DNA of 64,000 nt from Marsupella aquatica (Eukaryota > Plantae > Marchantiophyta). The stretch is taken from the NCBI GenBank assembly GCA_973895155.1, contig OZ316894.1, forward strand, positions 310,001 through 374,000, read 5' to 3'. A program made the position numbers and the translations under genes. Shown here piece after piece: positions 1 through 21,451 of this stretch. The first letter of the stretch is position 1. The number at the start of each line of letters is the position of its first letter. The notes under the pieces were generated by a model, which worked only from the letters and a program-made list of their open reading frames with translations, made no database searches and was not told where the DNA came from.

Positions 1-245
1 AGAAAAGTGTACAATTGGCCTAAAGAGTGTACATTTGGGCAATGAAAAGTGTATATTTGAACATCAAAATAGGTACATTTGGCTTTAAAAATGTACATTT
101 GAGTACATTTGGCCTAGAAAGTGTACATTTGAGTGAAAGAAACATACATTTGGCTTAAAAAATGTACATTTAAGTGCATTTGGTCTAGAAAGTGTAACTT
201 TGAGTGCAACAAAGTGTACATTTGGCCTAAAAAGTGTACATTTTC
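1..245. repeat. Degenerate tandem array of AAAAGTGTACATTTGG-like units (~20-22 bp period)
   Basis: About 11 copies of a (A/G)TGTACATTT core are visible. The array is truncated by the window start. The same motif recurs at 15005-15090. Confidence 0.85.
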
Positions 246-550
246 CTACCAACTCTTATTATAATCATTTAAAAGAAAGAACTGAATAGAAAAATATTTT
301 TAATTATGCAAAAAAGCAAACATTCATATTCATAACGATCAAAAGTTTAGAAAATGAGGAGATAGTATAACTAACACTCAATGGCATGGTCTCACAGTAA
401 AACTATTAGAATAGTAAATAACTAGTACGTAAGTTACTATGTTTGAATGAGTGACTATCTTACATAAAAACTAGTCACTATCTATTTAATTATTATAGCT
501 TCTAACAACTAAGTCTACTTGTCCATCCTTTGAAGATAACTTTGGACAGT

Positions 551-3500
551 TTATAGAACATTTCGAGGAATCTTCAAACCTCTGGCCGCCATGTTTTCTT
601 CTTTCATTCCAGATTTAAAACCATACATTGCAGAATTTGCATACTGCCAATGTTGAGCGTTCTCACTAAACCCTGGATCTCGTTCCCATGTCTTAGTGGA
701 CATGAAGCAGTTTAGATATCGTGCACTCTCAGTCACATCAAGTTTAGAGTGTTTAGGCCTCCACCATTCGACTGGAAACATTGGAGCATATTTTTGAGGC
801 AGAGGAGGGTTTGTTGGAGATGTAGTTGGGACTTCATGCTTAGGGTCCACCAAACCCAAAGCTCTCACCAACCAGAAATGACCTCCACCATTTTTATTCT
901 CCCAGTCATCCTTGGGTCGAAGAAATACAAAGTTCCCTTCACGAATATCCTGTAGGGGAATCCACCGTCCTTGTTCTCTCTCAGCTCAAGATCCAACAAA
1001 TGGTGCTGCTTGATCTTCCATCTCTTCCAAGACCTCATTTTGAAGAGCCGTCATCTCTGCATTCTCCTCATCTTCACTTGGAGGACTACTTTGTTCCGGT
1101 TGGTTGACCTTGTAACCAGTGCCGTGGTTAGTCTTAGGCCAAAATCCATTTTTCAAGGGAAATTGAGTACTTCCCTCCCCTTCTAGTGCGAGCCCATTTG
1201 TCAACAACTCCACAATTCTCTCCCAATATTTCACAAGAGGAAATCTTTCCTTATATGCTATAGATGTCTCATCAGTGCAACTCCTTCTCAAAAAATCAAG
1301 GTACTTGTTAAGAAATGGGATAATCTCTTCAGATTTTTTGTGTATCTCTCCAATGGATTTAGCTAAGGGCTCTCCACTAGGTAAAAGAAGAGAATTTGTT
1401 GTCAGATCTGTTGCCCAAATGCACCTTCCTCCAACTGGAGCCCAAGCTTGCTTTACATGGGACTTATATTGAAATATTGGTACATTATCTCTCATAGAGA
1501 AAAGAAATGACACGGGTTTTGAGTGACCTTGAATATCTTTAACTTTGAAAGTTTGAAGATATTCTTTGTAAGATGCAACTTCTTGTATCAATCTAGAAAC
1601 TGGATGAATGCTCTCACATTCCCAAACCTCTGCCATAAGAGCAAGGAGAGTTGCAACTTCCTTGTGCTGAACTTGATATGATACCTTCAAAAAGAGTGCA
1701 TCAACATCTTCGTGCATATGACCAACCATTAGAAAAGACATTTGAACAGTTTCAAATACTCCTCTACTCACAAGCTCACTACAAAATGCCATGACAGTCT
1801 GGTTTTTGTTATCCTTTGCTGAGTTATCCATTTGTAGTGTTAGGTGCCTTGGCAAGGGCTTGGAAGATGGACTGCCTTGTTCCCCATGCATGTCCCCTCC
1901 TTGATCCTCACCATGTTGGGTGGAGACCGTCTCCGTTTGACTCTCGGCTGCATCTTCAGAACCAATATACCTATTCATTGGAATACTTGATCTTTGGTTC
2001 CAAATATCCCTTAAAAAATGCATCAAAGTCAAGAAGGGCTTGAAAGAAAGGTCTATGAGGTTCCAAATAAAGGCCATCCAACATGTCACCTGTCTTGTCT
2101 CCATTGTACTCTTCAAGGTCTCGAAGACACTTAGCCAAGGATGTCATCGTGAAATCAGCATCTTCTGGCCAAAGGCCAGTGACACTAAAGTGTGCATAGA
2201 CTCCTGGATCCCTTCCGTGGGTCAACATCCCTGTGAGAGCAATAGGTAGTGGCATCCCATGACCCGAAAGCAATTTAGGAGTACTAACCATTTTTGGAAT
2301 CCACGTCTTTGCTTGATCCATCTTGTTGTGAATGATGCAAAGATATTCCCCTGGATGTTGCTTAGCCATCACTCGATGAGCATAGTAAACATATCTACGT
2401 GACATCTGCTCACAAAGATGTTGCGCTCATTTTTCTTCAATTTCAGCACGTTCTTTTTTCCTTCTTTCTCGCATCAAACTTCTTTGTATTCACAACAGAG
2501 ACTACACTTGGCAAATGCACCATCTTTATGGAAACTGAAGTTTGCAAATGATTTGCTCCAAATCTTGTACAGAGTATTCTCTGTAATAGGGGGAAGCCCC
2601 TCTTCCTTCATCTTTGTTCTCACATCTTCCAAAATCTCCAACTTCTTGTAACATGCTAGAAGACGATACTCAATGGAGTCTGTCCCATGAGCCCCAACAT
2701 AAGGTATATGAGGCATGGGCTCTGCATTTCGAGTAAAAAAATCCTCCAACAGAGCTCTTGCATGCAAGGTATTTGACCTTGTTTTCATGGAGCCAGTGTT
2801 TCCATGGGTTTCCAATTTTGCAACCCTCCACATATCTCCTTTTGTAATCATAATATTTTGTGTGGCTAAAGCCATGGATGATTGCAAATGCATGTCTACA
2901 TACGACCATACCCTTGAGAACATGGTGCCCCTTATCACGAACATCATCTTCTCTATAGTGGAAGAGGTTGAAAATGTGTGATGTTTTTGACTCGCTAGAC
3001 ATCCCATGAAATTCTATCCGGATATCTTCTATGTCTTCTCTTGGCATAGTCAAACAACATTTCTGCTTGCAACAATTCTCTCTTTTAATTTCATCAATCA
3101 AAGCTTCCGTTGTTTTTGAAACTGCCTTGGTTTCCAACAACCTTCTCTTCTTTTCAATCGGATCTACATGAGTCCTCTTGTTGAAATTGTATGGCCTTGT
3201 GCGCGGCATTCCCCTATCATTTACATTTGGATAGAGATCATCCCTATCCACCGCCTCCATCCTCTCTGAACCTTCAACCAAAATGTCCGACAAAAATTTC
3301 CCGTTTGCAAGTAGTTTTGTTGAATCAATCCGCCACCGAACCAAAGTAATTACTCCCCTATGGAAGTTGGGAAAGTATTGTGATTCCACCACATCTTTCA
3401 CAGCAATCCCTACATGGTCCTTGCCAAGGATTTCATCGTCAACCGCCGTGGTTTCTTGAGGCACAGTGATGGTCCCCGTGGCAACCCTATTGGTTCGATC

Positions 3501-4280
3501 TGAACCGATGTATAGTTCAACCAACTCTGACATCCAATTTGACCGTTGGAAATAGTCACAATTAGTTGTAGAAATTTCAGCTGAGGGAGACTCCACAACA
3601 AAACTCCGCTCTATGTTGATATCATCACCCGCATCCTTCTTTGAGAAACTCTTTCTACTTCGGACATCTGCCACATCCCAGAGAACCCATGAGTCTTTTG
3701 CCTCGTCAATTGTGTCAGCCCCATTGTGTTTGTAAGGTAAAACCCTACTCCCATGAATGACATCAGTGACCCTCACACTGATCCGTGATTCACCAAGTAA
3801 AATGTTGTGACATCTTTCCATTGGATTTGTATTGAAAACAACTCCAAGGGCAACACAACACCCAAAGATGAACATTTCAACCTCATCCCCTTGCCTCAGA
3901 GTGGTCGATGAGTCCTCCTCTACAATTGGATTTTTCTCCAAATTACTCTTCGGTCGATTTGAACAACTACCTACATTAATGCATTTTTGAGAATTTGTTA
4001 TCGTTGATAGATATGCGCAAGACAAATCCCAAATAACGCAAGAATCAATGGCATCAAAAAGGTTTTCTGCCCGAGGCATTGGAAATGGTAGTTTTGTGGT
4101 TCGGTCAAAAACTTTCTCAATGAGAACGCCCATTCAATTCTCTCTCAACAATATCTTTTGAACACTATCTTGCGGGTTGATTTTTTGAACTGTCCTGCTT
4201 GCAACATCGTAACCACCACTTGTCAATATCACATTGTCGCCTCTCAAAAATATTCCGATCATTCCTACAACATGTTCACC
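551..4280 (-). pseudogene. Sola1/DUF7869-like DDD transposase, frameshifted, with three N-terminal Tnp1/En-Spm (Transposase_23)-like repeats
   Basis: Joins ORFs 2670-4133, 2474-3007, 1971-2405, 986-2116 and 551-871. Motifs: CCKQKC...VCRHAFAIIHGFS, FAKCSLC, CIIHNKMDQAKT, LQMDNSAKDNKN, FLMVGHMHEDVDALF. Probable splice acceptor (tgcag) near 4280. Confidence 0.75.
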
Positions 4281-4349
4281 TGCACAATTTAAAATGTAAA
4301 GTATTAGTTAACAATGGTCCCAACTAGGAAGCAGATAGGTGTGAACCCT

Positions 4350-5912
4350 ATCCAAGGACAGTGCGCAAATAGGGATCATCCCCATCAAGCAAAATAATAG
4401 GTCCATGAACAATCCTTAGCTAGCCCTAAGATCCCTGATCCCTATTCAGACGTTGGATAGGAATGATCCCTGTCCAGACGGTAGAGAGGTTCTGTCACTA
4501 TCCAAACAGTGGACATAGATGATCCCTGTAAACGGCGGACAGGGATCATCCCTATCCAAAATCCGGACAGGGATGATCCCTGCCAGAATGGCGGATAGGG
4601 TCTATCACTGTCCAAACGGCAAACAGGGACCATCCCTGCCTAAGCGGCGGATAGTGTCTATCATTGTCCAAAGGGCGGACACAGCTGATCCCTGTCCAAA
4701 TGGCGGATAGGGTCTATCATTGTCCAAACAATAGACATGGATGATTCAAGGTTCGGATCACTTAGGATCACTCAGTGATCCTATTAAGTAAAACCTTTCA
4801 TATTGGGGTCCCATAAAGCAAATACCTCAAACGGCAGAGAGGGATCATCCCTATCTAAATGGCGAACAGGGATCATCCCTATCCAAATGGCAGACAGGGA
4901 TCATCCCCATCCAAATGATGGACAGAGATCATCTCTATCCAAACGGTGGACAGGGATCATCTCTATCCAAAAGTCGGATAGGGATCATCCCTATCCAAAA
5001 TCCGGACAGGGATCATCTCTGCCAAAATGACGGATAATGTCTATCACGGCGGACAGGGATCTCGGGGGTTTCACTTCCACAAAAATGGCATATCACGTGC
5101 GACGAATGATAGGGTCATTTTATTGGTTCTAAGGGAAGACTTAAGAATTTTTGTAGAAGAACAATAGGGTCTTTTAAATTCAATTTTGAGACTTATAAGA
5201 ACATTAGGGTCTTTTTAATCCAAATTTTAGAATATTCCAAGAATATTCCAACTTTATAGGGGTTAAAAAATAAATTTTTTTTCTTACATTTTAGGGGGTC
5301 CAAGGCCTAAAAACGTCGCAGGCGATGGGGAGGTCCCCATATAGTGAGACCCCCGAGACAGGGATCATCCCTATCCAAATGGCGGACAAGGATCATCCCT
5401 ATCCAAAAGCCGGACAGGGATCATCCCCATCCAAACGGTGGACAGGGATCATCTCTATCCAAACGGTGGAAAGACATCATTCTTATCCAAACAGCACATA
5501 GGGATGATCCCTATCCAAACAGGTAACAGGGATGACCCTTGTACGGACAGTTAACCTGTACACACTAATTTAATGTTTGACCAAAGAAAGGTTGGATAGA
5601 GATTAAATCGCTATCCAAACGGTGGACATGGATCATCTCTATCCAAATGGCGGACAAGGATCATCTCTATCCAAATGGTGGACAGGGATCATCTCTATCC
5701 AAATGGTGGACAGGGATCATCTCTATCCAAATGCCGGACAGGGATCATCCCCATCCAAACGGTGGACAGAGATCATCCCCATCCAAACTTTGGACAGGGA
5801 TCATCCCCATCCAAACGGTGCACAGAGATCATCCCTATCCAAACGGTGGACAGACCCTTGTACGGACAATTAACCTCTACACACTAATTTAATGTTTGAC
5901 CAAAGAAAGGTT
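4350..5912. repeat. 28-bp-period array of the 21-bp palindrome GGAYAGRGAT(C/G)ATCYCTRTCC plus a 7-bp linker
   Basis: Example unit ggacagggatcatctctatccaaatggt repeats through 5624-5853 and 4836-5030. The array is interrupted by a MITE. A ~60-bp segment is duplicated at 5534-5593 and 5853-5912. Confidence 0.95.
5061..5357. mobile_element. MITE (297 bp), TIR CTCGGGGGTYTCACT, 8-bp TSD
   Basis: 15-bp TIR matches 14/15. Perfect TSD ACAGGGAT at 5053-5060 and 5358-5365. Confidence 0.92.
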
Positions 5913-6348
5913 CGATTGAGATGATCCCAATCGTGAGTTGGGCTGGATACCCCAACCTTAAGTAACTTAGATATACAATTCCTAAATTTGATACCAATGG
6001 AATATTCTATAATTAAGTTGAAAGTTAACTGTACTAGAAATGATTCTTCAACACAAAACTCACTTAGTTTATGTTGTCAAACCAAGTAATAAAATACTTT
6101 GTTGAAGGGGTAGTTATCAGTAAGCTGGTAAACTAAATGCTTCAGGGGTGTGGAAGAAATTAAAACTAGATGTTCTGTCTAGAAAACAAGAGTGGCTCAA
6201 TGGGGCTCCGTAATGAACGGACCTGGTTGAGAGACTGAATGAAAATATAGAAATGAAAATACCAAATGAGGACCAGCCGGACCAGCCCAAGTATCTTATA
6301 CCATTTGTTCAAGATCGCTCTTACGGATAAGGCGATGCGTGATCAGCC

Positions 6349-6680
6349 TTAAGCAACGGCGGAGTTTAGGGTCGAGTGGATGAGGTTAGGGTTTGCCTCG
6401 CACGGCTGTCTTGCCTCGCCTCGCACCTCGGCCTGCCACGTGTTGTGCCTCGCCTCGCACCTCGGCCTCACCTTGGAGGGGGGGGGTAAAGGAGGCAAGA
6501 GGTCCCACTTGGGCCTCATTCTTCTTCCCTCCTCCTCTTCGCTCCACTTCTGCGCCTCCGCTCCTTCGCTCCTCCGCTCTTGCGCTCCTCTACTCCTCCG
6601 CCACATTTGCTTCCAGTCTCCCTAGGCCCCACTCCACCTCCACCTTCACACTAGAGTTTCTGCCCTAGCCGCCATGTTAC
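6349..6680. promoter_or_regulatory. GC-rich putative promoter/5' UTR region between the divergent genes
   Basis: GC-rich island with GCCTCGC repeats, a CT-rich tract and a telo-box (ttagggttt at ~6385) in otherwise AT-rich DNA. Confidence 0.35.
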
Positions 6681-6683
6681 TTG

Positions 6684-8502
6684 TGTAGTATTGCATTAAG
6701 GACATAAATCAGCATTTAATGCCCAAAACTCGGTATTCGTTCCCATGGAAGAACATGTTGGGAATGGTTTTCTATCAATTAACACTTATGAATGACTAAG
6801 GTGTCAAAAACACAAAGGTGAGCCTTTTACTATGGATGCTCAGCAAGGCATAGATTTAAATGTTTGCTTAACATTATAAATACGATTAACAAAATGGAAT
6901 AAATTAAAAAAACACAAGAAAATCTTGAGGTATGATGAGGGAGTCTGGAATAGACCAAGGTAACTCCTCAACAACACTTAATTTGTGATGATTTAAGGTG
7001 ACAAATCCGTAAGAACATTTCTGGAATGAAATACTTTACTAGGATGATTATTAAAATGCCGTCAACATATCTTAACCTTTCCTTCCAAGGTACTCAGGTA
7101 GGATTAATAACCAATCACTTCAGCATCCAGTCGGTACTCCGAGTCACGAATAATGAACACCATCATCGTCAAACTAAAGTCATAGGTAATTGGTCAATAA
7201 CATCCTTTGCATCCCGTGCAAAAGCAATGTCATGCCAAAAACTTATGCATCAAGAACTTAGGAATGTATAGCCTTCACCAATTAAGGAATCTATCTCCAT
7301 ACATTCAAAAGATTTCATCATTTCACAAGGTTTTACTTCTCTGGTTTGATCTCCAACATTCAAACACAAGGAAGGGGGAAGAATTCCTTTGTATTAATCA
7401 CTCATGCAAATACAGAGTTTCTCTCTACAAAGTGAAGCCTTGTCATGCTGCAAATTTCCTTTGTATTAATCACTCATGCAAATACAGAGTTTCTCTCTAC
7501 AAAGTGAAGCCTTGTCATGCTGCAAATTTGCAACATAGTGCTTACATAATTCTTGCACATTTCAAATGACATAAATTCTACTTTATATAGGCTGGTAGAA
7601 ACCCAAGGAGAGAGAAAATGAAAGGACATGCCCTTTCATGCCTCAAGGGTTCTTGAACTAAAGTAAAAATAACAAAGGTGTGCTACAGTAGTACCTAAGG
7701 GTCACATGAGGGTTCCTGGTATATAAAACTAACCAAAAGGTATTGCAAATGTGAAATGTAAAAGTGACATTACGGTAAAACTAATGAATAGTGGCTTTGT
7801 CCTAATTTTAGTTTCTAAACCAAATATCAGTTTGAGATGAAACGTTCCCAGAGTATTCTCTTAGGTATAGTCTTCATGCTGGTAAAATCTCAGACTTTTA
7901 TGAGGTGTTTAGGTACTTCAATAAAATACCAAAAAGTACCGGAAATAAAGAACTACAGAAAATCGGAAAAAATTCTAAGTGTTGAAGGCATAAACACGTA
8001 AACTCGTAAAATCGTAAAGACGTAATCGCGGTGCAGCAAAAACTTAGCAGATTCAAACATTTTTAACTTCCTAGCTATAAGTCGGCTTGAGCTGAAACTT
8101 TCAGGAATGATTCTACTGCGTAATGACTACCTCCTGAAAAAGTATGAAACTTTTCTGACCATGAGAACTATTAAACTAAAATATCAGAGATCGGCTGATC
8201 GTGGTAATTGCACACAGAGCTCATTTTTGATGAAGTGCTTTGGAGTCCGGTTCTTGAATCTTCTAGTCTGCATTGCTTCTCCAATGATGTCCAGTCTTCT
8301 TTCTTGGTAGCATGCAAAGAGCAAGGATTTATATGGCGATCCTTGTCCAATAGAGGCAATAGCCTCCGATGAAGCATAACATCAGGTAAAGTGTTCAGTT
8401 GATCTAAATTGCTACAAAAGGTAGCTATATTACACCTTTGAGCTAGAAAAAGTTCAAAATTTATAAATTTTCCATCATTTCCAACTTATCTACTGCATTA
8501 CA
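6684..8502. mobile_element. TG...CA element, family A short copy 1 (solo-LTR-like, 1819 bp)
   Basis: Begins TGTAGT, ends ATTACA. 5-bp TSD ACTTG at 6679-6683 and 8503-8507. Homologous to 38422-40457 and, inverted, to both ends of 16428-28377. Confidence 0.92.
7384..7527. repeat. Perfect 72-bp tandem duplication inside family A copy 1
   Basis: ttcctttgtatt...gctgcaaat occurs twice. Confidence 0.9.
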
Positions 8503-8730
8503 ACTTGCCCTAGATCTAACACTCTGTGATCCTCCACGTGTCCGTACAGCCACGTGTCACAATATGGATCCATCTAGACCTATTCATGTATCTTTGGTCA
8601 TTGAGCCAACAGAGGAGATAGACCTCTCCTCCATTGAGGATGTGATAGACACGGGCCGAAAGGATTCTAGAGCCTTCCAATTGCTCAATCCAAGTGAGTA
8701 TCTCGGTAACAAGTTGAATATTTGTGCAGT

Positions 8731-9135
8731 GGACAAAGATGATCTCTGTCCAAGTAGAGTCCAAGTAGAATATAGTGATCTTTATTAGGAATTGGATAGA
8801 GATGATCTCTGTCCAAACTGAGGACAGAGATCATCCCTGTCCAATTGGATATGGATCATCTATTATTTTCCAAAATGACAATAGAGGATGTCCAACCAGA
8901 GGATCAAAATTGTCATATTAGAGGATGCTGAGGATCTTTATTTGGAATTCGATAGAGATCATCCCTGTCCAATTCCTAATAAAGATTATCAGTATCCTCT
9001 GATCGAACAAAGATGATCTTTATTAGGAATTGGACAGAGATCAACCCTATCCAAGTACAGGATAGAGATCATCCCTATCCAAGTACAGGATAGAGATCAT
9101 CCCTGTCCAATTGGATAGGGATCATCTCTGTCCAA
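8731..9135. repeat. Second array of the same 21-bp palindrome, immediately upstream of the ParB-like gene
   Basis: About 10 units, e.g. ggatagagatcatccctatccaagtaca at 9060-9115. Confidence 0.9.
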
Positions 9136-9194
9136 ATTGTGAGAGAACCTCATCTTTGTCAATTACAAAATTAAGATTTTCCAAACTAATATGC

Positions 9195-12100
9195 ATGGAT
9201 GGGACTATTGCAGAGAGCGATCTAAATGGATTGAAACCAGCAATTTCAGAATCAGATTGCTCCGAGGGAGTCTTGTTGGAGTAGAGCAAACAAGATTTTC
9301 GTTGGGGCCTTGAGTTCTCTCGAGTTGATTTCGATTTCCTTAGCACGTCAGAGAGACGGGATCCCATTTTGTGCATAAAGGTTAGAACAGGAGATCAAGA
9401 GACGCTTGTACTCGGACCTGTAGTCTTCATTGGAATTGAAGGAAGAGGGTTTGTTTCCGTCATTCTCAAGCTCCATGAAAGGATACGATGGGTTAAGCTA
9501 CATCTACCATCAAAGGCGTATTCTTCAGAGTTCAATGTTGAGTGGTCTGCTGCTAGAGAACTTGGCGTGTTGGCAATGGGCTTTTTCCCTAAGTCGTATT
9601 CAACTCAAAAGGTGATTGTTGGAGTGAAGGGGATTCTTCCACTTGACATCATGTATGGGTTTCAATATGTGAAGCTGAATATCCATAAACACCAAGGGAA
9701 TTATATATTTCCGATGACATGGATTTTAAATAATTTGCTCGACAAGGCAGGATTCCTATCTTTGGAGTCAGGTGTTTGCCTTGACAAGGAAATTGCATTT
9801 GCGGAGGAGTTTGCGATGGATAATGCAAAAAGTGGGTAGAATCATTACCCAAGCCTACAAATATTGCACCACTAGCGGTGAACGAGCTTCCAGTAGTTGC
9901 TAACAAAGAAGTTCCCAAACCTAGAAAAATTTCTCAGGAGACAACAACAAGGACTGCAAGAACAACGGCTGGGACAAGCACCAAACAAGTGGTAGGGAAG
10001 CGAAGACTAAGAGAGAGGAAGGAGCGCGAGAAAATTGAGACATTGCCGAAGGAACCCGCAAAGAAGCCAGTAGCGAAGAAACAAAAAACTGACAAGTCTG
10101 TTGTGCAGTCAACCCCTATGGACGTACAGATGCTCCCAGAAGATGAGGGAGACAAACTTGACGCCCCTGAGGAGAAGAAGGTCTTAGAAGGAAATGATGT
10201 TCTCCAATGAATAGAGCAGTACTATACTTTTGGGATAAATGAACTGTTTTCTATTCCTGTGGAGAAAATTATGCCTGCACGTGCAAGATTATGTTACAGG
10301 ATGCTCAGTAGTACCCATGTGAAGCACATAGCTGAATCCATGGTAAAAAATCCTGGACATGAACCTCACGTCGCGGACCTGCTTCCTTACAGTCCGAAGC
10401 TTAGAAAGTTGCTCCATTTTGACAGCACGGAGAACGACCGCAAAGACTTTCTTGCAGGAGTGAAGAAAGGCAAGATTGGTTTCCTTTGCCATCAGTGGGC
10501 AACATTCGGCTAGGGCGGCCAAGTGGGTTCTTGAATGGGCTAAAACTGATGCCAAGCTGATAGTGTTGGCAAAAAAGTTAAAATACAAGAAGTCTAGATT
10601 ATTGTCAGACCTTACACCATTGGCTGTATTGGTTGAGCACTCAATGAGATCAAATGCCATCAATTCGACGATGGTGTTTCAATCGTGATTCAAAGATACA
10701 ATTGTTCATGCAAGGAAACAATTCCTTGAATGCGGAGCACCAAGAAAGCCAAAGCACGGGGACAACAAGTCAAACGCCCAAGAGAGTCAAAAAAATTAGG
10801 TGAGAAACATTTTTCTTGTTTGGACAGAGATGGTCTCTGTCCAAGAGTGTGACCGTCCGTTACATTGATTTTAGTTCAATATGTTTTTGGTTATGACTTG
10901 GATGGAGATGGTCTATGTCCAAGAGTGTGATCGTCCATTCCAGAGATTTCTCTTCCTTTTACTTTTGGTTATGACTTGGATGGAGATGGTCTCTGTCCAA
11001 CAAGCAAGTGATAGTTTGTTGTCAAATCTCATTGATTGTAGATAACTTATTTTCCCCTAATTTTTTACTGTAGGGTTATTTGGCATTGGCAAGGATGACC
11101 ATGGGGAGAAAAGACTTGAAAAATGTATATTGGTTGCTTTTTGCCGAGAATGATCTTTTCGAGCTCTGGCGGTTAGTGTGCCAGATGTGGATTGATGGAC
11201 ATCTTCCTGATGGAGCTAGTACACAGGGAAACAAAAGGTCCAAAAAGGGTATAACGATCGCAATTGTTTCATTGTTTTGATGGTGAAATCTCAAATAGAG
11301 ATTTGACCAGAATTTTGAACAAGGTGAAGTTAGGTAAGGTTTTATTGAAGAAGGAACCGACAAATAAGTCAGATGTTCCAGCAATGGAGGACTTTGCAAA
11401 GGAGGTGAAGATATTGATCAAACTGAAGTCTCTTATTGGAGATTACTACTTCAAGAAGGATCCAAAAAACTTCCCAGCAGATAGTGATTGGGTTAAAGTA
11501 ATTGAGGTCCTCCCATTGTTAGGTGCCGAGTCGGAGTTGAACAGGTGCCAAAGAGCGGCTGGTGAAGTATGGTTGACAAATTTATTGAAGTCTAATCATA
11601 CAAAGGAGAGTGAGATATTGCCAATGACATTGGTGATGCGTCTAGATGATATTTATTGTCAGAAGTTTGGCGGTGGGACAAGTTCTCGGACCCAACCGTG
11701 GGTCACATTTTTAGTAACAACCTAATGAAGATAGTGGATCCGGAGTTGTTGGAAGAACAATCTCCAACATGCCCTCTTGCAATTGTTGATTTCAGCCAAC
11801 TTCAATAGAAGGAGTGGACCAAAGCAGAGATTTTGGTACTCTTCCCATACATAGTAGAGCTACCACAAAATCCCACCATTGTTGTGATGATAACTGTCCA
11901 TCCGGGTTACCTTGTACTGAATGTCCTAAGCGCTCTTCGTAAATTAGGACATTCAAAAACTCTGACTATTCACATTGAGTATGGGAGTTATTACTGAGAT
12001 GATCAACCTCACCCTCACGACTCATGTTGGAAGGGAGGAATAGAAGAAGTTATCTTTGCGGGAATTTCTCACGAAGAGAACGTCAGCTGGGATGAAGTGT

Positions 12101-13445
12101 TCAAGCCCAACTAGATGAAGCCAAAATGGGTGTACGGTGAAAAGGATACTGATTTCGTGGTTGAGAAGGTCAAGGGAAAGGGAAAGGCAAAGAACGCGGA
12201 TGAGGAGTCATTGCATGAAGATCTAAGAAATATGATGACCCCAGAAGAGGCGGCAATACTTCTGCACATGGCACCTCGATTTGAGACTGTCGGCGCTCGG
12301 GGTGGGTGGGTGAATCCTCACGCCAAACCCACACGGATGATCCAAAAGATCATCCAAACATTGTCCGAGCCGGGGGATTTGATTCTTGACTTTTTCTCTG
12401 GCGGTCTAGTGATGAAGGCATCCCTTTTTCCTCAACGTGAATGTTTTGTTTATTGTGACTCTCAACATGAGAGACATTTTGTGGAAGCATACGCTTCGTT
12501 CCTTTGTGAGAAGGTTCCCACCATCAAAGATCGTTATGATCGCTATTTTGGTGGAAGTTCTAGACATTGGAAACCCTCTTCTGCCATTGTTGCTATTGAG
12601 GATGAATCAGATGGTGATCAAGAAGATGGAGCTGACCAATCAGTCAAAGACGATGGGCCATCGGAGGGGGCATACGTGAAGAATTTGGATGACCGAGTTG
12701 GCGAGGGTGAAAATATTGACCTTGTAGAAGACGATATGATTGTTGGATCTGCACCTTGCAGTTCACCAATTACAGATGTTGCCCCCATGGGCCCCAATGA
12801 GGGCCAGTATGATGATAACTTGGATAGAGATGGTCTCCATCCACAAGTGCCTGGACAAGAGATGGAAGTTGATACTTTTGAAAAAATTCTTCAAACAACC
12901 TTCTCAATCAAGGTGCGGAGAGGCATGGTGAGTCCAATGAACTCGACACATTGGGATTGAGACCACAGCCCATCCAAATAGCTGACATTCCCGTGAATGA
13001 AGCAAGTGCATCCACGACTGCTGACAACCAGGCAGGTGCTTCAATTTGTCCCGATACACTCTTTTTCGCTTCTGATGACAAATTGGTGTTTGTTCGATCA
13101 CAATCAAGAAGTCCCGTTATCCTTCCACTCTCAAAAAAGAAAGGGAAGAGAGTAGGATCAACTGGATATAAGTCACTTGAATATGATTGTCGATGTTATG
13201 TGTGGAAAAGTGGACCCAATGTAGGAACTGAAGTTGTGTTGGATGCTGCTCAATCAATTTTGAACAATGACTCGTACAAAAAGCACAAGAAAGATCCAAC
13301 TTATAGAAGTGGAGAATTGGGATTGATAACTCCGGTTTGGTCTGCACCTTATTGGGTAGAGGAGAGTACCTCCGATGTCAATTATGAGATCCAACAAGAA
13401 CTTGGTGATGATATCTTGATTGATGAATATGGATCGCATTGTTAG
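9195..13445 (+). pseudogene. Multidomain protein: ParB/Srx-like domain plus beta-class N4C/N6A DNA methyltransferase-like fold (disrupted)
   Basis: Joins ORFs 9369-9839, 9878-10210, 10259-10688, 11080-11725 and 12115-13445. ParB-like IPVEKIMP...YRML...HVKHIAESM...FAISGQHSARA. MTase-like NPHAKPTRMIQKIIQTLSEPGDLILDFFSGG. Several in-frame stops and frameshifts. Confidence 0.65.
10800..11073 (+). other. Probable GT-AG intron containing three palindrome copies
   Basis: Donor ag|GTGAGA, acceptor tttttactgTAG|. Palindromes tggacagagatggtctctgtcca and variants at ~10821, 10899 and 10977. Confidence 0.65.
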
Positions 13446-13600
13446 CCAAAGTCTAGATTGAGCGATGTGACCTTATCAATTTGATATAATATAGTCTGTA
13501 TAATTATACTTCAAGTTTAACAATTAGAGCATCAGTATCAATATCCATCTCCTCTTTACGGTTTCTCAATGAATCTGATCAGTATGCAGATATATTTTCT

Positions 13601-14734
13601 TTGTGGTTGGCCACTTGTGTTGGATTGACAAAGATGATCTCTATCCAAACTTCAAATGTGGTTTTATCTCTAAGATTGGTATTTGTTGCACTTGCAGAAC
13701 CAAGACCTTGTTCCATCAAGCGCAAATTGCTGATTTTGGATCTTAACAAAATACTTTGGGATTCAGTTGAATTCCAAAGCAAGGGCAAATCCAGAAATGT
13801 TGTGATCCTAAGTGGAGTGCATTGGGATAGAAAAAATGGAATTAGTCGCATGTACACAGAAAGGCCAGGGCTCCATGAGTTTCTAAAGTTGGTTTTTGAC
13901 CAATTTGACGTTGCAATTTGGACATGTGTTGGGGTACATCGAACAGTGAAAATGCTGAACATGATGTTCACTGCTGAGGAGCGGTTGAAACTTAAGTTTG
14001 TATTCACAGAGGTGGAAGCCTTTGACACAGGCATTCAAAGGCGTGACATTACAAACGGAAAGGCAAATGTGCTACTGAAGGATTTTCGGGTGGTATGGAG
14101 TGGATTTGGAAATCTATATGATGAAACCAACACCCTCCTTGTGGATGACTCCCCCCTTAAGGCATTTGCCAACCCAAGCATGACCGGACTATTTCCAGTG
14201 CCCTACACGCATGCCAATGGTGGAGATAATTTTCTTCTAACAATTCTTTGGCCTTGTCTTGAGAAACTATCCCATGCAAGTGACATTAGATGTTATCTTC
14301 TTCTTAACTCTCCACTGTGGTCTCTATTGCACATAAAGAGAGACAAGGTAAAAAATGGAATTACTTATGATAAACTTAGTAAGAGATGTGCAACAAAAAT
14401 TTGGAAGTCACAGTTTACGCATAGTGTGTTGGACCTCAATAGCAATGAGATTCCTTGGAACGTGAAGCATTGTATATGTAGTTTACGTCCTGAGGCAGAA
14501 CTTGACGATGCACTTGTCACGTCACTTGCTAAAGCATTTGTAGGAAGGGACTATTCAGGTCCGCATAGAGAAAATCCCAGACACTTTTTGCGGGAGATTA
14601 TAGCCATTAGGAACAACACCACCAAGTTTCAGCTCCCTAAAGATAAAGGGGCTTGCAACCGTGACACTAGGGTAGATAGTAAAGGAGACAGGGGCACGTG
14701 CTCAAATACACATTGTAAGGAGCACTTTGTTTAG
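13601..14734 (+). CDS. FCP1/NIF-type HAD phosphatase-like protein
   Basis: KLLILDLNKIL, RPGLHEFL...FDVAIWT, LLKDFRVVW, NTLLVDDSPLKAFANP. ORF is uninterrupted. The true 5' end is probably spliced (cttgcag at 13698). Confidence 0.8.
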   Translation: MWLATCVGLTKMISIQTSNVVLSLRLVFVALAEPRPCSIKRKLLILDLNKILWDSVEFQSKGKSRNVVILSGVHWDRKNGISRMYTERPGLHEFLKLVFDQFDVAIWTCVGVHRTVKMLNMMFTAEERLKLKFVFTEVEAFDTGIQRRDITNGKANVLLKDFRVVWSGFGNLYDETNTLLVDDSPLKAFANPSMTGLFPVPYTHANGGDNFLLTILWPCLEKLSHASDIRCYLLLNSPLWSLLHIKRDKVKNGITYDKLSKRCATKIWKSQFTHSVLDLNSNEIPWNVKHCICSLRPEAELDDALVTSLAKAFVGRDYSGPHRENPRHFLREIIAIRNNTTKFQLPKDKGACNRDTRVDSKGDRGTCSNTHCKEHFV

Positions 14735-15004
14735 AGATCTGACTCATGTTAAGCCCCTTAGATAGAAGAAATACATTGTAAATTTGGAGATAATTGTATA
14801 TTATTTTATAATCTATTTGGAGTTATGTCATTTTGTTCACACATATTCAAGGGTTTCTTTGTGCTGAAATGTTTTTATAAGTATGATCTCTATCCTACTA
14901 TTCTTTGTGAATTCATAAATAATGATCTCTATCCTATTATTCCTTGTGAATCAATAAATGATATAATATGTATTATTTATTAATATAATACTAATAGGAT
15001 TTGG

Positions 15005-15090
15005 CCTATAAAGTGTACATTTAGAGACCAAAAAGTGTACATTTGGGTTTCTTAAAGTGTATATTTGGGGACATGAAAGTGTACATTTCA
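15005..15090. repeat. AAAGTGTACATTT array (4 copies)
   Basis: Same motif and orientation as 1-245. Lies just upstream of the MULE-like gene. Confidence 0.8.
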
Positions 15091-15154
15091 AGACTGATTT
15101 ATGAACAAAAGAAAATACACTTTTAATGAATAGGCTGATTGCGGGAGATTTGAT

Positions 15155-16427
15155 TTGAAGATGAATGATATTGAGGCCATTGTTCAAGAGCTCGAAACCA
15201 GTGATGACATTGAAGATGCAGCAACATTCAATGTGGATGATGGTGAACGGTTTTGGCATCTATACGCAGGGATTTTGTACTCACTTCGAGTAAGACAACA
15301 TGAAGGACTGTCCAGTGTCCCCCAAGTTCTATTTGATGTTGTCAAGATTTCTTCTAGTGAGGATGGAGATCACACTCCAAGTCCTACGTTGAAGATGAAA
15401 GTCCCGCAACATGCTGTCGTTAAAGGTGAGACTCCAGGAAGCTCCAACCAGTTGGAGGTCATGTATCGGCGGAGTGCAATGGATACGTTACTCAAATCCA
15501 CTGGTCATAGCGAGTTATCAAGGTTCATATCAGCGGGTGATTTTAGACATGAGCAAGTCTCCTATCTGCCAACTAAGTATAATGGGAACGTCGTGTTTGA
15601 ATTGCCACCCATTGGCAAGATGCTCTCTAAAGGCTCTAGGCTTAGGGACATGGACCTGCCAAAGATTGCTACATTTGGACACGCATATTTCCAACTACCG
15701 CGAACGTTCAGTCAAAAAAACTTTGGCAATTCGATAAGGTTACCTGTACGGGATTTATTGAATGTCAGAACGAGTCCTACGAGTACTTCCAAAGGAAGAA
15801 GAAGGCAAATGCTAAGGCATGGCAGGGTACTCCAAAGCTTAGTGGTCAGTATGCTGTCGGATCTTTTATCGAAGAGGGCGGTGTTGTGTGTCATTATTGT
15901 GATCAGATTCCTTTTTGTGTCAAGTACTGCCCTGCCCGTTTGTTCTATACGTACCCGCAAGTATTACTTGATGCGGAAACATGTAGTCATATGTCCCGCC
16001 TGGAAGTTCATATAGGTGAGCATAACCATCCAGGTAGAAAAACCTTCTGTAGGAGTGCGGAGAAGATGGCTGAGGATTTAATTAAAAAAAATCATGAAGC
16101 CAATCCTCTGGCAACACCAGCTGGGAGCTTGAATTCAGGGTCCATAGTGAAAGCTCTCTGCGAACATGTTGACGACATGGTCGATATCAAAGACACTGAA
16201 ATATGGAAGTCTCTGATGGTACTTTCCACTCCCCAGAAGTTTGCATCTCTTTTTTGGAGCGTTAGGATAGACCAAAAGGGTCGGGGTGAACTAGATTTTC
16301 TCTCGCAAATGCAGAAGAGGATTAACTTGTCGTTTCTCCAGAGGTATTTGCTCCCGGGTCAGGGATGTCAAGACAACAGGCCTCACATCTTTAAAATGAC
16401 CACGAAGGGTCACGGTTCCGGTGTGGA
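15155..16427 (+). pseudogene. MULE-like transposase, 5' part (GCM/WRKY-like Zn domain)
   Basis: YLPTKYNGNVVFELPP, CHYC...CPAR...HIGEHNHP, FKMTTKGHGSGVD. Reads in frame into 28378 once the insertion is removed. Confidence 0.8.
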
Positions 16428-18142
16428 TGTAATAGCTCTCTAAATTAGAAACTTAGAAATAATGAAAAATTTTAAAAATTTTGGAGTTAGAAATAGATTA
16501 AACATAGCCAATTAATCTACTTTTAGATATAATTAATCCGTGGACCCCCATGTTCATCCAAGGAATGTGTGTGTGATTAAGTGAAATCAATTTTCATCAA
16601 GGCAAAAACCGACGGTTTTGAGTCTCCCGATGTTGTTGGTGTGTGCTCATACAAAAACAAATGCTCAAAAGATAGAGATTTATCAAACGGAAGGTTGAAT
16701 GTGGAGCAATTGAGTTTTTTGATAGGTTTTGCTCACACACTGGAGAAATAATCTTTCAACCATTCTTGATTGATTGTTTGTGAGTTACATTGAGCATTAC
16801 CGCCACAAGACAGAGTGGAGCACAACACTCAACTGTTGGCAAAAAAACGCTTGTCGATTTGGTGGGAAGAACACACAAAATGAACGAGCCATCACTTCAC
16901 ACAAAGTATTTGTAATTGTTTTATTTAAGAAAGCTATGGTGTGAGGGGAAGACCGACAATTGTTTCTTTGACATAGAGGCTGCATTTGGCATCAACCTAT
17001 GTTCAGAGTGAGCTTTAGTTGAAGACTATCTAAGAGATGCGAACAATTCAAGCCGGGAAGCAAGCATTGTAGACAAGCGATGGCGACGTAATCAAAGAAA
17101 TCAATTTGTAGCGGCTAAGTTTGTGACGGTGACAAGATTGTGATATCTCTTAATCGAGAAAGGGTTTCCAATGAGCCTCAAATTGACAAATTTTGTCAAG
17201 TTCCATATTGTTCAACTTCGTAACAATCATCACACTCTTTACTCCTTCCTATCCTCTTATACATGGGTGGTTACTAAGGCGGTTAATAGTGTAACTGCCT
17301 TAGTCCTAACCCTTTTGGGTAGACCTAGTCTAAGGAGTTATAACACTCCCCCTTGGATGCGACTTTTATGTCTAGAAAAGATGCAGACATCCATGGTCTA
17401 CCTAAAGTAATAATTGAATTATTTGATTGGTCTATAGTAGTATCTGATGGGGTATTGTGGTAGGGGTGTAGCCTCATTAAAACCTCCCCTTCTTACTGAT
17501 GGGAGGAAAGAGTGTTACCACCCCTCCATTATAGATTAAGAGTAAGGGGAGTATTGTGGGTTCGTATACCCATTTATTTGTGGCAATGTTTGTGTAACAC
17601 TAATTCGTATGAAAGTGTCTTCGTAAAAAGAATGAGTTGTTGTCATCCTGTGAAACAGTCGATGTTGTGTGTATGGAACGGGAGATTAGGTTTCGGGTTC
17701 GTACAGACTGCCTTCGACGTGTGAGCTCGCGGTCGTTAGTTACTTGAAAATGAAGCGAAGTGTAGTGTCCTCCGGCTTGAAGTGTTTTATGTGGAGGGGT
17801 CAGTGATCGGGATTCCTGAGCTGCTCTGTAGTCGTGCTCAATGTTTTAGTATGCACAAAGTGTTGGGAGATCAGGTCGGTGCGCAAGTGTTGATCAGTGA
17901 ACTCGGATGCACCGTGGCATCGATGGTTGAAGGTTGACGGATAGTAGTTAGCGCGTTGTGGTTTGTGCTCTGCTGGTGCTATCTTCGGTGTTCAGCTGCG
18001 TTTGCTCGTTTGAGTTCCGGTTGGCTGTGTATGCAGTCTCATGTGTTCGGTGAAGTGTCGTCGAGTGGGGTCGTGCGAAGCTCTTGTTGGTTGTTCTCTG
18101 TTCGTCCTTGCTGTCTGCTTTCGGTAAGCTTGTTCCTCCCCC

Positions 18143-19720
18143 TCAGTTTTGAAAGGTTGTTCTTTGCGCATTTTCCTGTATAAATTCCGACAGGCTATGC
18201 ATTCCGATTGATCTGGTTAGTGTTTTATGTACGATTGGAGGCAAAGGTTTCGTGAATAAGTCTGCTGAGTTTTCTGAACTCAGGATCCATTGTACGTCTA
18301 TCATGTCGCCTAGCTGCTCATGTGCAAAAAAGAATTTTGGGGCTATGTGTTTGGTTCGATCACCTTTTATGAAACCAGCAGAAATCTGTTCGATGCAGGG
18401 CCGGTTATCTTCATAGATCACAGTTGGTGAACTCAGTTTAGGCATACCTGAGGTTTCTTGGATGTAATTGATCACGTTACGTAGCCATATGCATTCCCGA
18501 CTCACCTCGTAAAGGGCGATTATTTCTGAGTGATTGGAGGAGGTCGTGGTTAGAGTTTGTTTCGTGCTCCTCCACGATATCGCTGTAGGTCCGATCTTGA
18601 AGATGTACCCAGTCTGAGACTTTGCATCCGCTGGGTCTGATAAGTATCCTGCATCTGCAAATCCGGATAGTATGAAGTCTGTGTTGCTCTGAAAAAGAAG
18701 TCCATGGTCGATAGTGCCGCTCAGGTAACGCATTATCCTCTTTATCCCATTCCAGTGTCGAATAGTAGGTAATGAACTGTGGCATGCTAACAAGTTAACT
18801 GCGAAAGCGATGTCGGGGCAGGTTTGGGAAGCCAAGAAGAGCAGTGCCCCTATCGCCGACAAGTATGGCTTTTCGGAGCCAAGTAGTGGCTCTGCCTCTG
18901 TTCTCTTTCGGAATATGTCCTTGTCTTTGTCCAGTGACCGAAGGTCCATTGGAGACCTGACAGCTTTTGCCGTGTGCATATGAAATTGCTTCAACATGCG
19001 GCGAGTGTAAGTTGATTGGTGGAGGAGTATGCCCTGCTTGAGGTACTCGAACTGAAGGCCGAGGCAGAAAGCAGTTCTACCGAGATCTCTTATCTCAAAA
19101 ACCCTATTGAGTTTTTGGATTGTATCTTCCAGAATCTTTGGTGTTCCAAAAAGATTGAGGTCGTCTACATAAATCGCCACAATGATTATCTCTGTGCCTT
19201 CATGTTTGATGAACAGACAGGGTGTGAGCTCAGATGTTTTAAATCCCATTGCTAGCATTTCGTTTTTAAAGTGTTGGTACCAGGTACGTCCGCTTTGCTT
19301 CAAGCCATACATTGATCTCAAAACTTGAACAGCAAATTTAGTTCTTGCAGTAAGTGCTTTATGGTCTGTTGCTTTCCATCCAATCGCTTTAGCTGTGGTA
19401 TGTAGTACCGACTTATTTGTATGGCCAAAAGGGCCATCATTGTGGGCTGTATGCTCTTGTACTTTTGGCTCCCCCTGAAGGTGGTGATCCACTCGGGTTA
19501 GTAATTCGGGTGGGGCCTCCATATATATTATAGTGTCCAAATGGCCGTAGAGGTAAGCGATGACAATGTCCAGTTGATGCATTGTCAGGTTGTGGTGAAT
19601 GGCAAATGCTATTAGAATTCTATATGTAATCACATCCATGACTGGAGAGTAGGTTAAGTCATAATCTCTGCTAGGGATCTGGGTAAATCCCTTGGCCACC
19701 AGTCTAGCTTTGTATCTCAC
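18143..19720 (-). CDS. pol: Copia reverse transcriptase plus RNase H (pol fragment)
   Basis: RYKARLVAKGF, YGLKQSG, IYVDDL, IYEDN, KHIAPKFF, ADLFTK. Confidence 0.95.
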   Translation of the reverse strand: MRYKARLVAKGFTQIPSRDYDLTYSPVMDVITYRILIAFAIHHNLTMHQLDIVIAYLYGHLDTIIYMEAPPELLTRVDHHLQGEPKVQEHTAHNDGPFGHTNKSVLHTTAKAIGWKATDHKALTARTKFAVQVLRSMYGLKQSGRTWYQHFKNEMLAMGFKTSELTPCLFIKHEGTEIIIVAIYVDDLNLFGTPKILEDTIQKLNRVFEIRDLGRTAFCLGLQFEYLKQGILLHQSTYTRRMLKQFHMHTAKAVRSPMDLRSLDKDKDIFRKRTEAEPLLGSEKPYLSAIGALLFLASQTCPDIAFAVNLLACHSSLPTIRHWNGIKRIMRYLSGTIDHGLLFQSNTDFILSGFADAGYLSDPADAKSQTGYIFKIGPTAISWRSTKQTLTTTSSNHSEIIALYEVSRECIWLRNVINYIQETSGMPKLSSPTVIYEDNRPCIEQISAGFIKGDRTKHIAPKFFFAHEQLGDMIDVQWILSSENSADLFTKPLPPIVHKTLTRSIGMHSLSEFIQENAQRTTFQN

Positions 19721-19867
19721 GATCTCTCCTTGGGCATTTCTCTTCTTTATAAAGGTCCACTTGTAGCCGGTCAGATGTGTTTCAGGTGGGGCAGGCTTGA
19801 TGGGTCCGAATACCTGACGCGAGATTAAAGAATCCAGTTCCGAGTTTATGGCGTTCTGCCATTCATG

Positions 19868-21340
19868 CTAGTCTGCTTGGGCTCGGGCCTCAGTTATCGT
19901 TGCCGGGTCAGGTAACTCTCCCATTATTTCTTGCAAAATTTGATAGGCAAATAGATTGTTGATAGGGGTTGAGACTCTGTCTCTGATTTGGCCTGTGTAG
20001 TTATAGTTAATGGCAATCTCCTCATTTTCTGTTGTGATAGGTGGTGTGGGTTGTGGGTGTGCGGATGCAGGTGGGTTCTGTGGTCTTCTTTGCCGAGGCT
20101 GTTTGTCCCCGGCTCCAGGTGGTCGGCCCCTTTTCTTCTTTGGTTCGGTTGTTGTTGCTGGTTTTGTCGTTATATCGATTCGGGATGGTGCCTTTGCGGC
20201 TGGTACATGTGACCTGGTTACTTTTGCCACGTCTGCGAATGAATCTGGGAGTTCATCCATGATTCTAGTGAGGTGTAGGATGCGTTGGACCTCGGTATCT
20301 GTTTGGGCAGATCTCGGGTCATTCCAGAATTGTGAATTGATGTGCCAAGTGAGGTCCTTTTTTAGTACAGCTTTATTCTCCTGGTCTGAGGTTAATTTCG
20401 GGAATATCTCTTCATAGAAGTGACAGTCCGCGAATCTCGCCTTGTATACGTCAGCTGTAGTTGGCTCTAGATATCGTATTATCGATGTGGAATCGAATCC
20501 TATGTATATACCCTTCTGCCTCTGGGGTCCAAGCTTGGTGCGTTTGGGTCCCATGATGGGCACCAGGACTTGGCACCCAAAGGTGCGGAGGTGAGCCAAG
20601 TTAGGTGCAACGCCGAATGCCAGATGGTGAGGTGAGCTGGCATTGAAAGCTGATGGTCTGTATCTTAGTAAGGCGGCAGCGTGTATGATAGCGTGGCCCC
20701 AGGCAGATTGTGGTAGATTGCTCTGCATGATTAGTGGTCTCGCTATTGTTTGGAGCCTTTTAATCAGGGATTCGGCTATCCCATTTTGGAAGTGCACATA
20801 GGCAACAGGATATTCTACTTCTATCCCAGATGCAGTGCAGAAGTCATCAAATGTCTGGGATGTAAACTCCCCGACATTATCGACTCTTAATGTCTTGATT
20901 GGGTAGTCCGGGAACTGAGCTTTTAATCGCAGGATGTGAGCCAGTACTCTGGAGAAAACTAGGTTACGTGTTGAGAGAAGTGAAACTTGGGACCATTTGG
21001 AGGAGGCATCGATAGTGACTAAGAAGAAGCGGAATGGACCATTGGGGGGGGGGTCAACTGGGCCACACACATCGGCTTGGATTCGCTCTAAAAATCGTGG
21101 TATATTTTTGTCTGTGGTTGAGGGGGATGGTTTCATGGTGAGTTTTCCTTGTGAGCAGGCTAGACATTGAGTTTTCATTGAGGTTGGGTGTACTGTGTTT
21201 GGTATACCGTGCGTATCTTTGATGATCTTGTGAAACATCTGTGTGCCTGGGTGTCCCAGGCGTCGGTGCCAGATGTCCACGGATGGCAGTGCAGGAATAT
21301 GCGTGTGGAAGGTATGTATTTTTATGGCATAAAAACCCAT
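19868..21340 (-). CDS. pol: Copia integrase (pol fragment)
   Basis: WHRRLGHPG, FLERIQADVCGP, LRVDNVGEF, QNGIAES. Premature stop at 19868. Confidence 0.92.
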   Translation of the reverse strand: MGFYAIKIHTFHTHIPALPSVDIWHRRLGHPGTQMFHKIIKDTHGIPNTVHPTSMKTQCLACSQGKLTMKPSPSTTDKNIPRFLERIQADVCGPVDPPPNGPFRFFLVTIDASSKWSQVSLLSTRNLVFSRVLAHILRLKAQFPDYPIKTLRVDNVGEFTSQTFDDFCTASGIEVEYPVAYVHFQNGIAESLIKRLQTIARPLIMQSNLPQSAWGHAIIHAAALLRYRPSAFNASSPHHLAFGVAPNLAHLRTFGCQVLVPIMGPKRTKLGPQRQKGIYIGFDSTSIIRYLEPTTADVYKARFADCHFYEEIFPKLTSDQENKAVLKKDLTWHINSQFWNDPRSAQTDTEVQRILHLTRIMDELPDSFADVAKVTRSHVPAAKAPSRIDITTKPATTTEPKKKRGRPPGAGDKQPRQRRPQNPPASAHPQPTPPITTENEEIAINYNYTGQIRDRVSTPINNLFAYQILQEIMGELPDPATITEARAQAD

Positions 21341-21451
21341 TGGAAAAGCTGTGAGCGTTTCCTTAATTTCTATGCCGTTTTGCGTCTTAGCTATGAGCTG
21401 TAGTACTTCTCTGGAATTGTGGGTACTAGTATGGATGTGGAGGCCATTTTC

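Follow-up and report, generated by a model that had tools for sequence, protein, structure and literature searches.

A decayed bryophyte transposon with a ParB-fold and degenerate methyltransferase fusion gene beside arrays of a 21-bp palindrome

Introduction

It is still an open question by what means giant DNA transposons evade methylation by their hosts. In Arabidopsis, VANDAL elements encode VANC, whose targets are tandemly repeated within the element; both the binding of VANC to its own element and the loss of methylation were tested experimentally (PMC5735166). Related ideas have been put forward for algae. The giant transposon Sola1-1_Ec32 of the brown alga Ectocarpus carries, on the strand opposite to the transposase, a gene for a 1104-amino-acid protein with ParB-like and N4/N6 methyltransferase domains, which was proposed to bind its own element (PMC12477816). 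In Bostrychia, along with other red algae, Plavaka transposons of 17-19 kb carry the genes PAG2 and PAG3, and the ParB-like PAG3 lies beside tandem arrays of inverted repeats; the PAG cassette moves between transposon superfamilies, self-binding was hypothesised, and VANC is the only self-binding system that is listed there as demonstrated (bioRxiv 10.1101/2025.02.11.637652). The idea of a ParB-methylase accessory protein in algae rests so far on domain annotation. Here, we describe a related system in a land plant. A stretch of 64,000 nucleotides from the liverwort Marsupella aquatica (assembly GCA_973895155.1, contig OZ316894.1, positions 310,001 to 374,000; hereafter, the window) contains one copy, now decayed, of a large DNA transposon that is present in high copy number and belongs to a bryophyte-type plant. 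In this copy, a broken gene for a ParB/Srx-fold and methyltransferase-fold fusion protein is accompanied by 45 copies of a 21-bp palindrome. An initial reading of the window, made from the letters alone (the sequence-only reading), had suggested a ParB/parS-like module, and we examined its claims by computational analysis. Here and below, what we say of the published systems draws on parts of the cited sources.

A ParB-like and N4/N6-methylase protein on a giant transposon, a ParB-like gene beside inverted-repeat arrays, and the idea of self-binding are already known from brown and red algae. The new points are that such a module occurs in land plants, that it is in a pseudo-enzyme state, that its site is defined, and that a fungus-like contig has an array of the same core, beside a gene with a GxxRxxA motif. 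In the literature that we could reach, which excluded subscription papers, Repbase reports, and Iyer et al. 2011, we found no account of the module in land plants or fungi. The bryophyte locus makes the idea testable: it offers a 21-bp site, an intact homologue (P0139), and the prediction of binding without methyl transfer and without a standard cytidine triphosphate (CTP) clamp.

Like Sola1-1_Ec32, our element is a large DNA transposon with ParB-like and PF01555 domains encoded on the strand opposite to the transposase. However, it is from a land plant rather than a brown alga, and the methylase, which is a predicted writer in Ectocarpus, is degenerate across the whole family that we describe. 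The parts of the Sola1-1_Ec32 description that we drew on mention neither a palindrome array nor an NIF-like gene, and the likeness is drawn from the description. The PAG cassette also has a PF01555 methylase alongside, and its inverted-repeat arrays adjoin the ParB-like gene, as they do here. Unlike our gene, PAG has the ParB domain fused to a 2-oxoglutarate oxygenase and the methylase fused to a SET domain, in separate genes; the transposase is of the EnSpm/Plavaka type instead of DUF7869, and this comparison too is by description. The Ectocarpus FASTA file and the bioRxiv supplementary files may hold related repeats. As in VANDAL elements, the accessory protein is encoded by the element and tandem target motifs lie inside it. 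In contrast to VANDAL elements, DUF7869 is not a Mutator-type transposase, there is no Pfam match to VANC, and the targets are long palindromes.

The palindromic sites are confined to the element

The sites fit the degenerate 21-mer GGAYAGRGATSATCYCTRTCC, which has two GGAYAGRGAT half-sites with C or G in the centre. With up to 4 mismatches allowed, this pattern has 45 matches in the window, versus a mean of 0.05 in 20 shuffled sequences; with up to 5 mismatches, it has 49 matches, versus a shuffle mean of 1.1. At either threshold, all of the matches lie within 3229-14895. Similarly, all 51 exact occurrences of the 10-bp half-site fall in 1-15100, and the remaining 48.9 kb (15101-64000) have none. 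The sequence-only reading had counted about 45 palindromes and had seen none elsewhere, and both statements hold. The palindromes are imperfect: most often, the arms pair at 8 of 10 positions, and just 1 of the 45 is perfect. Their two-fold symmetry fits a dimer.

Most of the sites are in tandem arrays. The left arrays (4333-5933) consist of four blocks with a period of 28 bp, which together hold 30 sites when up to 4 mismatches are allowed. The right array (8731-9135) has 8 sites with periods of 28 and 25 bp and stops some 60 bp short of the fusion gene's start codon. What separates the left and right arrays is mostly a later insertion of an unrelated repeat (6684-8502; 1819 bp), which has TG..CA ends and a 5-bp target duplication, resembles a solo long terminal repeat (LTR), and is not part of the module. 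Another three copies, starting at 10822, 10900, and 10978 (a period of 78 bp), are in the intron of the fusion gene. Single palindromes are found at 3229-3249, inside a reading frame on the transposase side and with zero mismatches to the pattern; at 12822-12842, in the part of the fusion gene that encodes the acidic linker; and at 13626-13646, at the start of the NIF-like gene. The motif occurs for the last time at 14875-14960, where two copies (14883 and 14922) are 39 bp apart. All three genes of the element (transposase, fusion, and NIF-like) thus have sites in or beside them. The positions listed in the sequence-only reading are real, but it missed the copies at 3229, 4333, and 5913, and the copies at 14883 and 14922 are mainly half-sites.

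When blocks of different period are compared, the core is about 0.8 identical and the flanks are 0.34-0.38 identical, although the figure for the core is partly built in by the pattern. Within the arrays, 28-bp units with shared spacers reflect recent duplication.

The fusion gene and its ParB/Srx-fold domain

The fusion gene (9195-13445, plus strand) has two exons. From the N terminus, it encodes a conserved region, a ParB/Srx-fold domain, a helical middle domain, a degenerate beta-class methyltransferase fold, an acidic linker, and a small conserved C-terminal domain. This copy is a pseudogene, as first noted: it has 5 frameshifts (near 9826, 10487, 11264, 11707, and 12885), and its frame is interrupted by 7 or more stops. 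Many contigs from other copies lack the first stop and four of these frameshifts (the fifth is outside the rows that were compared), so the damage is specific to this copy. The intron (10800-11073) has GT..AG ends; the homologues P0025 and P0120 span it in one open reading frame (ORF), and other copies of the element cover it.

To collect the family, we used a match from a word search (P0001) as the seed for a HMMER search, which yielded 116 clusters at E ≤ 0.001. The family is conserved at 25-60% identity, and homologues tile the whole fusion gene. A profile of the ParB segment had 21 matches, 19 of them new. The fusion is found within one natural ORF in P0139, P0085, and P0097; P0139, which is intact, has all of the domains in 1009 amino acids. 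The closest named homologues belong to two liverworts, Calypogeia fissa and Riccia sorocarpa, and the host lineage itself reads as bryophyte-type. Protein-based scans of loci in JGI metagenomes (288 candidates), IMG/VR (49), and GTDB (5) turned up no relative. The N-terminal 200 amino acids (9195-9826) are about 30% identical to P0122, P0126, and P0133 and have no family match.

The ParB/Srx-fold domain (10211-10760) is split by the frameshift near 10487, and it was recognised by structure rather than by sequence. Pfam has no ParB family match in the window segments and, across 18 homologues, gave only one match to DndB (E = 0.031). Searches of PHROGs, NCBIfam, and PDB sequences did not name the ParB part, and a word search with the 100-amino-acid ParB half had no match. 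We therefore turned to an AlphaFold model of the homologue P0129, which is 46-60% identical to the window segments, built from an alignment of 18 rows. The mean predicted local distance difference test score (pLDDT) is 70, with 72-90 in the core and values below 50 from residue 195. The top matches of three fold searches are ParB/Srx members. Foldseek against the PDB placed ParB, Noc, PadC, KorB, and sulfiredoxin on top (best E = 0.022, probability 0.99). A wide search with VIA-align gave Z scores of 7.9 for PadC, 7.8 for KorB, and 7.2 for SerK, with root mean square deviations of 2.9-3.6 over 93-100 aligned residues (3.5 over 100 for the best match); going by their names, we take the top ten rows all to belong to the ParB/Srx superfamily. 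The third search returned a phage (viral) ParB-like protein at E = 8e-4. By language-model features, DndB was the top named family (27 of 30 hits, score 0.92), which is below the tool's recognition threshold. The ParB/Srx signature that was originally read from the AISGQHS motif (10488-10508) is thus borne out by the modelled fold.

The GxxRxxA motif binds CTP in ParB (PMC11229316). At this position, the window has GQHSARA (10497-10517), that is, GxxSxxA. Among 24 homologues, 22 have GQHS, 1 has RQHS, and 1 is broken; none has the arginine. A standard CTP clamp is therefore unlikely, which undercuts the earlier suggestion of ParB/parS clamp loading. Where ParB has its second, ENxQRE-type motif, the equivalent helix end reads RSN/DN-type (alignment A4), in a region of low pLDDT. 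The ParB/Srx fold and the clustered palindromes resemble bacterial ParB, Noc, and KorB with their parS-type sites (PMC11229316), but the arginine is replaced, no ParA was seen, the domain is fused to a methylase fold, and the gene is eukaryotic, with an intron. Judged by its model, the domain has a ParB/Srx fold and should not be classed with the ParB clamps.

The conserved helical domain that follows (11074-11706) is a candidate for the DNA-binding part, given its position behind the ParB domain.

The methyltransferase fold is degenerate throughout the family

The next segment (11707-12510) has the fold of beta-class N4-cytosine/N6-adenine methyltransferases. All five of its sequence matches in the PDB are amino-methyltransferases, the family profile A1 matches M.RsrI at E = 3e-11, and Pfam's PF01555 matches at E = 1.4e-5, just under the curated cut-off. 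The order of the motifs is permuted, with motif IV before motif I, and was confirmed against P0107. The beta-class layout proposed from the sequence alone, with NPHAKP...DFFSGG at 12313-12405, is therefore correct.

However, the catalytic motifs are degenerate. Instead of (D/S/N)PP(Y/F), motif IV is DFSQ (11788-11799, within LAIVDFSQ at 11776-11799), and motif I, FxGxG, which binds S-adenosylmethionine (SAM), is shortened to DFFSGG (12388-12405); the gap is visible against both RsrI and P0107. We counted these motifs in the rows that cover each of them, among the 120 rows of alignment A3, intact ORFs included. PPY is present in 0 of 36 members, although most of them keep the aspartate of motif IV. 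In motif I, 46 of 49 rows lack one residue, 2 (P0088 and P0117) have a loop of full length, and 1 is broken. Because the motifs are lost throughout the family, even in intact ORFs, the degeneration is a trait of the family and not the decay of a pseudogene. In N4CMT and CcrM, PPY and the residues of the SAM loop form the active site (PMC10406627). With PPY absent and the SAM loop short, active methylation is unlikely. The suspicion that the methylase is non-catalytic thus extends from this copy to the whole family, and the suggestion that the element is marked by methylation is not supported in the form in which it was put.

The Ginkgo homologue P0107 (Gb_37443) has near-canonical motifs and a full-length SAM loop, with DIPH at motif IV, which suggests that the family descends from an active enzyme. 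P0107, P0088, and P0117 might represent an active branch in seed plants. P0107 also has a weak match to DUF6551 (E = 0.019).

Bacterial-type PF01555 folds are known from other eukaryotes. N4CMT of bdelloid rotifers is an active host enzyme with an intact motif IV, SPPY (PMC8885841, PMC10406627), and so is Marchantia DN4MT1, whose motif IV is also intact (bioRxiv 2021.02.12.428880). Unlike these enzymes, the Marsupella family is transposon-borne, fused to a ParB domain, and without motif IV. ParB-HTH methylase fusions of another class were reported from chlorophytes and chytrids (Iyer et al. 2015; PMC4738411). More broadly, a match to PF01555 on an element of this kind does not by itself mean a writer of N4-methylcytosine or N6-methyladenine, which bears on claims about these marks in plants.

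Structure and copy number of the element

To the left of the arrays is a broken gene for a DDE-type transposase (551-4133, minus strand), which is transcribed away from them. Its frames match Pfam's DUF7869 (E = 2.3e-36 and 1.7e-4), which may belong to a Sola-like superfamily. To the right of the fusion gene is a frame that is open from stop to stop (13490-14734, plus strand). It encodes an NIF/FCP1-type HAD phosphatase-like protein with the motif DLNKIL and matches Pfam's NIF at E = 1.4e-14. In the Riccia gene model P0072, an NIF domain is fused behind the methylase fold. The three genes would form one element, because they share the palindromic sites, are repeated to a similar extent, and are linked by the fusion in P0072.

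We assessed copy number from contigs in four of the seven public runs that were listed; the main palindrome arrays are outside the stretches that were compared. The numbers of contigs that cover 9150-15000 were 1488, 3828, 159, and 26, and the corresponding numbers for 250-4340 were 1041, 3641, 268, and 177. Both arms are therefore from a large repeat family. Together with the transposase, these counts support the transposon context that had been read from the sequence. Contig cover runs on to 250 and to 15000, and the left end of the element is probably outside the window. CpG depletion does not mark out the element: the values are 0.41-0.56, versus 0.68 in a young Copia element.

Two arrays of a repeat of about 22 bp bracket the three-gene segment: one at 3-243 (plus strand; core AAAGTGTACATTTG) and another, in the same orientation, at 15010-15090. 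They could be direct terminal repeats, or they could be one array that the element inserted into. The array at 3-243 may also flank the element itself or a neighbour.

What the fusion protein might do

We give about even chances to the following reading: the fusion protein binds the element's 21-bp palindromes as a dimer and acts as a non-catalytic shield and regulator, not as a writer of methyl groups. That it binds the sites at all is fairly probable, and the writer and clamp variants considered below, which also imply binding, hold a further small share. Beyond the anatomy, we infer every step of the mechanism. Each half-site would be read by one subunit, probably via the helical domain behind the ParB domain. 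Occupied 28-bp arrays between the two divergent promoters, together with single sites inside the intron and the bodies of the genes, would keep silencing marks off or would tune the promoters; the shielding step is modelled on VANC in VANDAL elements. The dead methylase fold would be kept for DNA contact or dimerisation, and the NIF-like protein would be a partner module. This reading is consistent with the large excess of sites and their confinement to 3229-14895, and also with the loss of the catalytic motifs in a family that is nevertheless conserved over 116 clusters. PAG3 with its neighbouring inverted-repeat arrays and VANC with its tandem targets serve as precedents, and the contig L008, described below, has a second array of the core next to a gene with a GxxRxxA motif.

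Several observations weigh against this reading. The arrays and the ParB-like gene have been seen together in one copy of the element only, the tandem copies of the site are not independent of one another, and among 146 homologous proteins, none was found to contain a peptide that derives from the palindrome. The scores for the ParB fold, which are taken from a homologue, are moderate (Z below 8, and E above 0.001 for Foldseek against the PDB). The middle domain, which is the candidate for binding DNA, has no sequence match in the PDB, and for this domain the single-sequence AlphaFold model of P0001 (pLDDT 35) is unusable. Finally, the element's ends were not found: there is no inverted repeat longer than 10 bp between 1-550 and 14700-17250, and this also bears on whether the three genes form one element.

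We considered four other explanations. KorB and DndB act as repressors, and our protein might be a plain autorepressor of this kind, which would limit the transposase and its own transcription without countering silencing. Most of the sites are between two divergent promoters, the last of them precedes the start codon by some 60 bp, KorB is one of the best matches by fold, and DndB leads by language-model features, albeit below the threshold. However, about 40 sites, plus those in the intron and in three gene regions, are many more than an operator would require, and their distribution is like that of the VANC sites (PMC5735166); a repressor also leaves the retained methylase fold unexplained; we consider a plain autorepressor unlikely. 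It is distinctly unlikely that the arrays have nothing to do with the ParB-like protein and are transposase-binding sites or selfish tandem repeats, with the gene as captured cargo. Tandem amplification alone could produce many copies, as the recently duplicated 28-bp units illustrate; the association of arrays and gene is known from a single copy; and 22 bacterial loci with single sites lack ParB neighbours. On the other hand, the sites are internal and reach their highest density next to and within the ParB gene rather than at the ends; the core persists over four periods and as singletons; and the pairing of a ParB-like gene with an inverted-repeat array recurs in red algae and possibly in the contig L008, which is described below.

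The other two explanations assign an enzymatic or nucleotide-dependent role to the protein. In one, copies with an unbroken gene encode working N6-adenine or N4-cytosine methyltransferases, by which the element marks itself, perhaps at the GATC that lies in the middle of each site. The beta-class fold and motif order, the aspartate that is mostly kept in motif IV, the near-canonical P0107, and the hypothesis published for Ectocarpus (PMC12477816) speak for this. We nevertheless regard it as highly improbable, as all 36 members lack PPY and 46 of 49 have a short SAM loop, and these are active-site residues in N4CMT and CcrM (PMC10406627). In the other, the palindromes are loading sites for the protein, which is a genuine clamp of the ParB type, gated by a nucleotide, and which slides or condenses the element and aids the pairing of ends or the segregation of excised copies. 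The fold (with ParB, Noc, and KorB on top), the palindromic and clustered sites, and the invariant SGQHS, which suggests a conserved ligand pocket, would fit a clamp. But the arginine of GxxRxxA is serine in 23 of 24 homologues, the Pfam scan of 18 window frames gave no ParA-type match, and the fold is common to many proteins that are not clamps (SerK, Srx, SbnI), so a clamp seems very unlikely.

The palindrome in other DNA

An exact-site scan of JGI metagenomes identified 11 loci. Nine of them are single sites; the other two, L003 and L008, are 99.5% identical copies of the same sequence, which has 10-12 sites at a period of 63 bp. L008 has 12 palindromes with the same 21-bp core (3503-4243) and an intron-containing gene (4287-6060). 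The array starts 44 bp behind this minus-strand gene, which reads IVLGGNHRRKA, that is, with an intact GxxRxxA; the array is also upstream of a second gene. A loose GxxRxxA-type pattern had one other match in 25 loci (about 185 kb). The contig looks fungal, going by its short spliceosomal introns and its Copia neighbour.

The gene and array in L008 are possibly a true ParB/palindrome pair, and we treat them as a lead. Two points count against this assignment: it rests on one motif, and the profile of the bryophyte ParB domain did not match the gene, which was not among the best 12 of 2443 segments. Profile comparison gave no backing either (P = 0.065 and 0.77), nor did phage or plasmid searches or family libraries. 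If the pair is real, then the recognition site is conserved across kingdoms. A bolder version, which we consider doubtful, is that the ParB-like/palindrome pair is ancient and common to land-plant and fungal transposons, with GGAYAGRGAT as its half-site, and that in bryophytes the ParB pocket and the methylase were made non-catalytic, giving a second, independent VANC-like shield against silencing that recognises its own element by sequence; the genome itself would then reveal the shield's target site.

The remaining 9 of the 11 metagenome loci, and all 13 GTDB loci, have one exact site and no array. Several of these sites are in hairpins followed by runs of T, or inside ordinary genes, and a scan of 31 neighbouring ORFs at E = 1e-12 found no ParB. 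We therefore rejected a bacterial origin of the site: these loci have single sites only, with unrelated neighbours and in hairpin/T-run or genic contexts. Viral contigs had 0 matches to the palindrome. Another candidate, L012, was dropped because its match falls outside the motif.

Neighbouring features of the window

The window is repeat-rich plant DNA throughout, with pieces of Copia and Gypsy elements. The repeat that was inserted between the palindrome arrays (6684-8502) belongs to a family with two other related pieces in the window, at 26952-28377 and 38422-40458. The copy near 24-28 kb has two long ORFs (24839-26869; 422 and 253 amino acids) without a Pfam match.

To the right of the element, a second transposase-like gene (15164-16427 and 28378-30492) is split by an 11.95-kb insertion. 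Pfam has no match for this gene, which is presumably Mutator-like, going by its motifs. The insertion (16428-28377) has TG..CA ends and a 5-bp duplication and holds a Copia element (17209-23204), whose 138-bp LTRs are 99.3% identical; this Copia element is a recent insertion. Farther to the right, a pentatricopeptide repeat gene that ends in DYW (47630-51439) has a frame of 1269 amino acids, which looks intact and includes seven near-identical 303-bp repeats.

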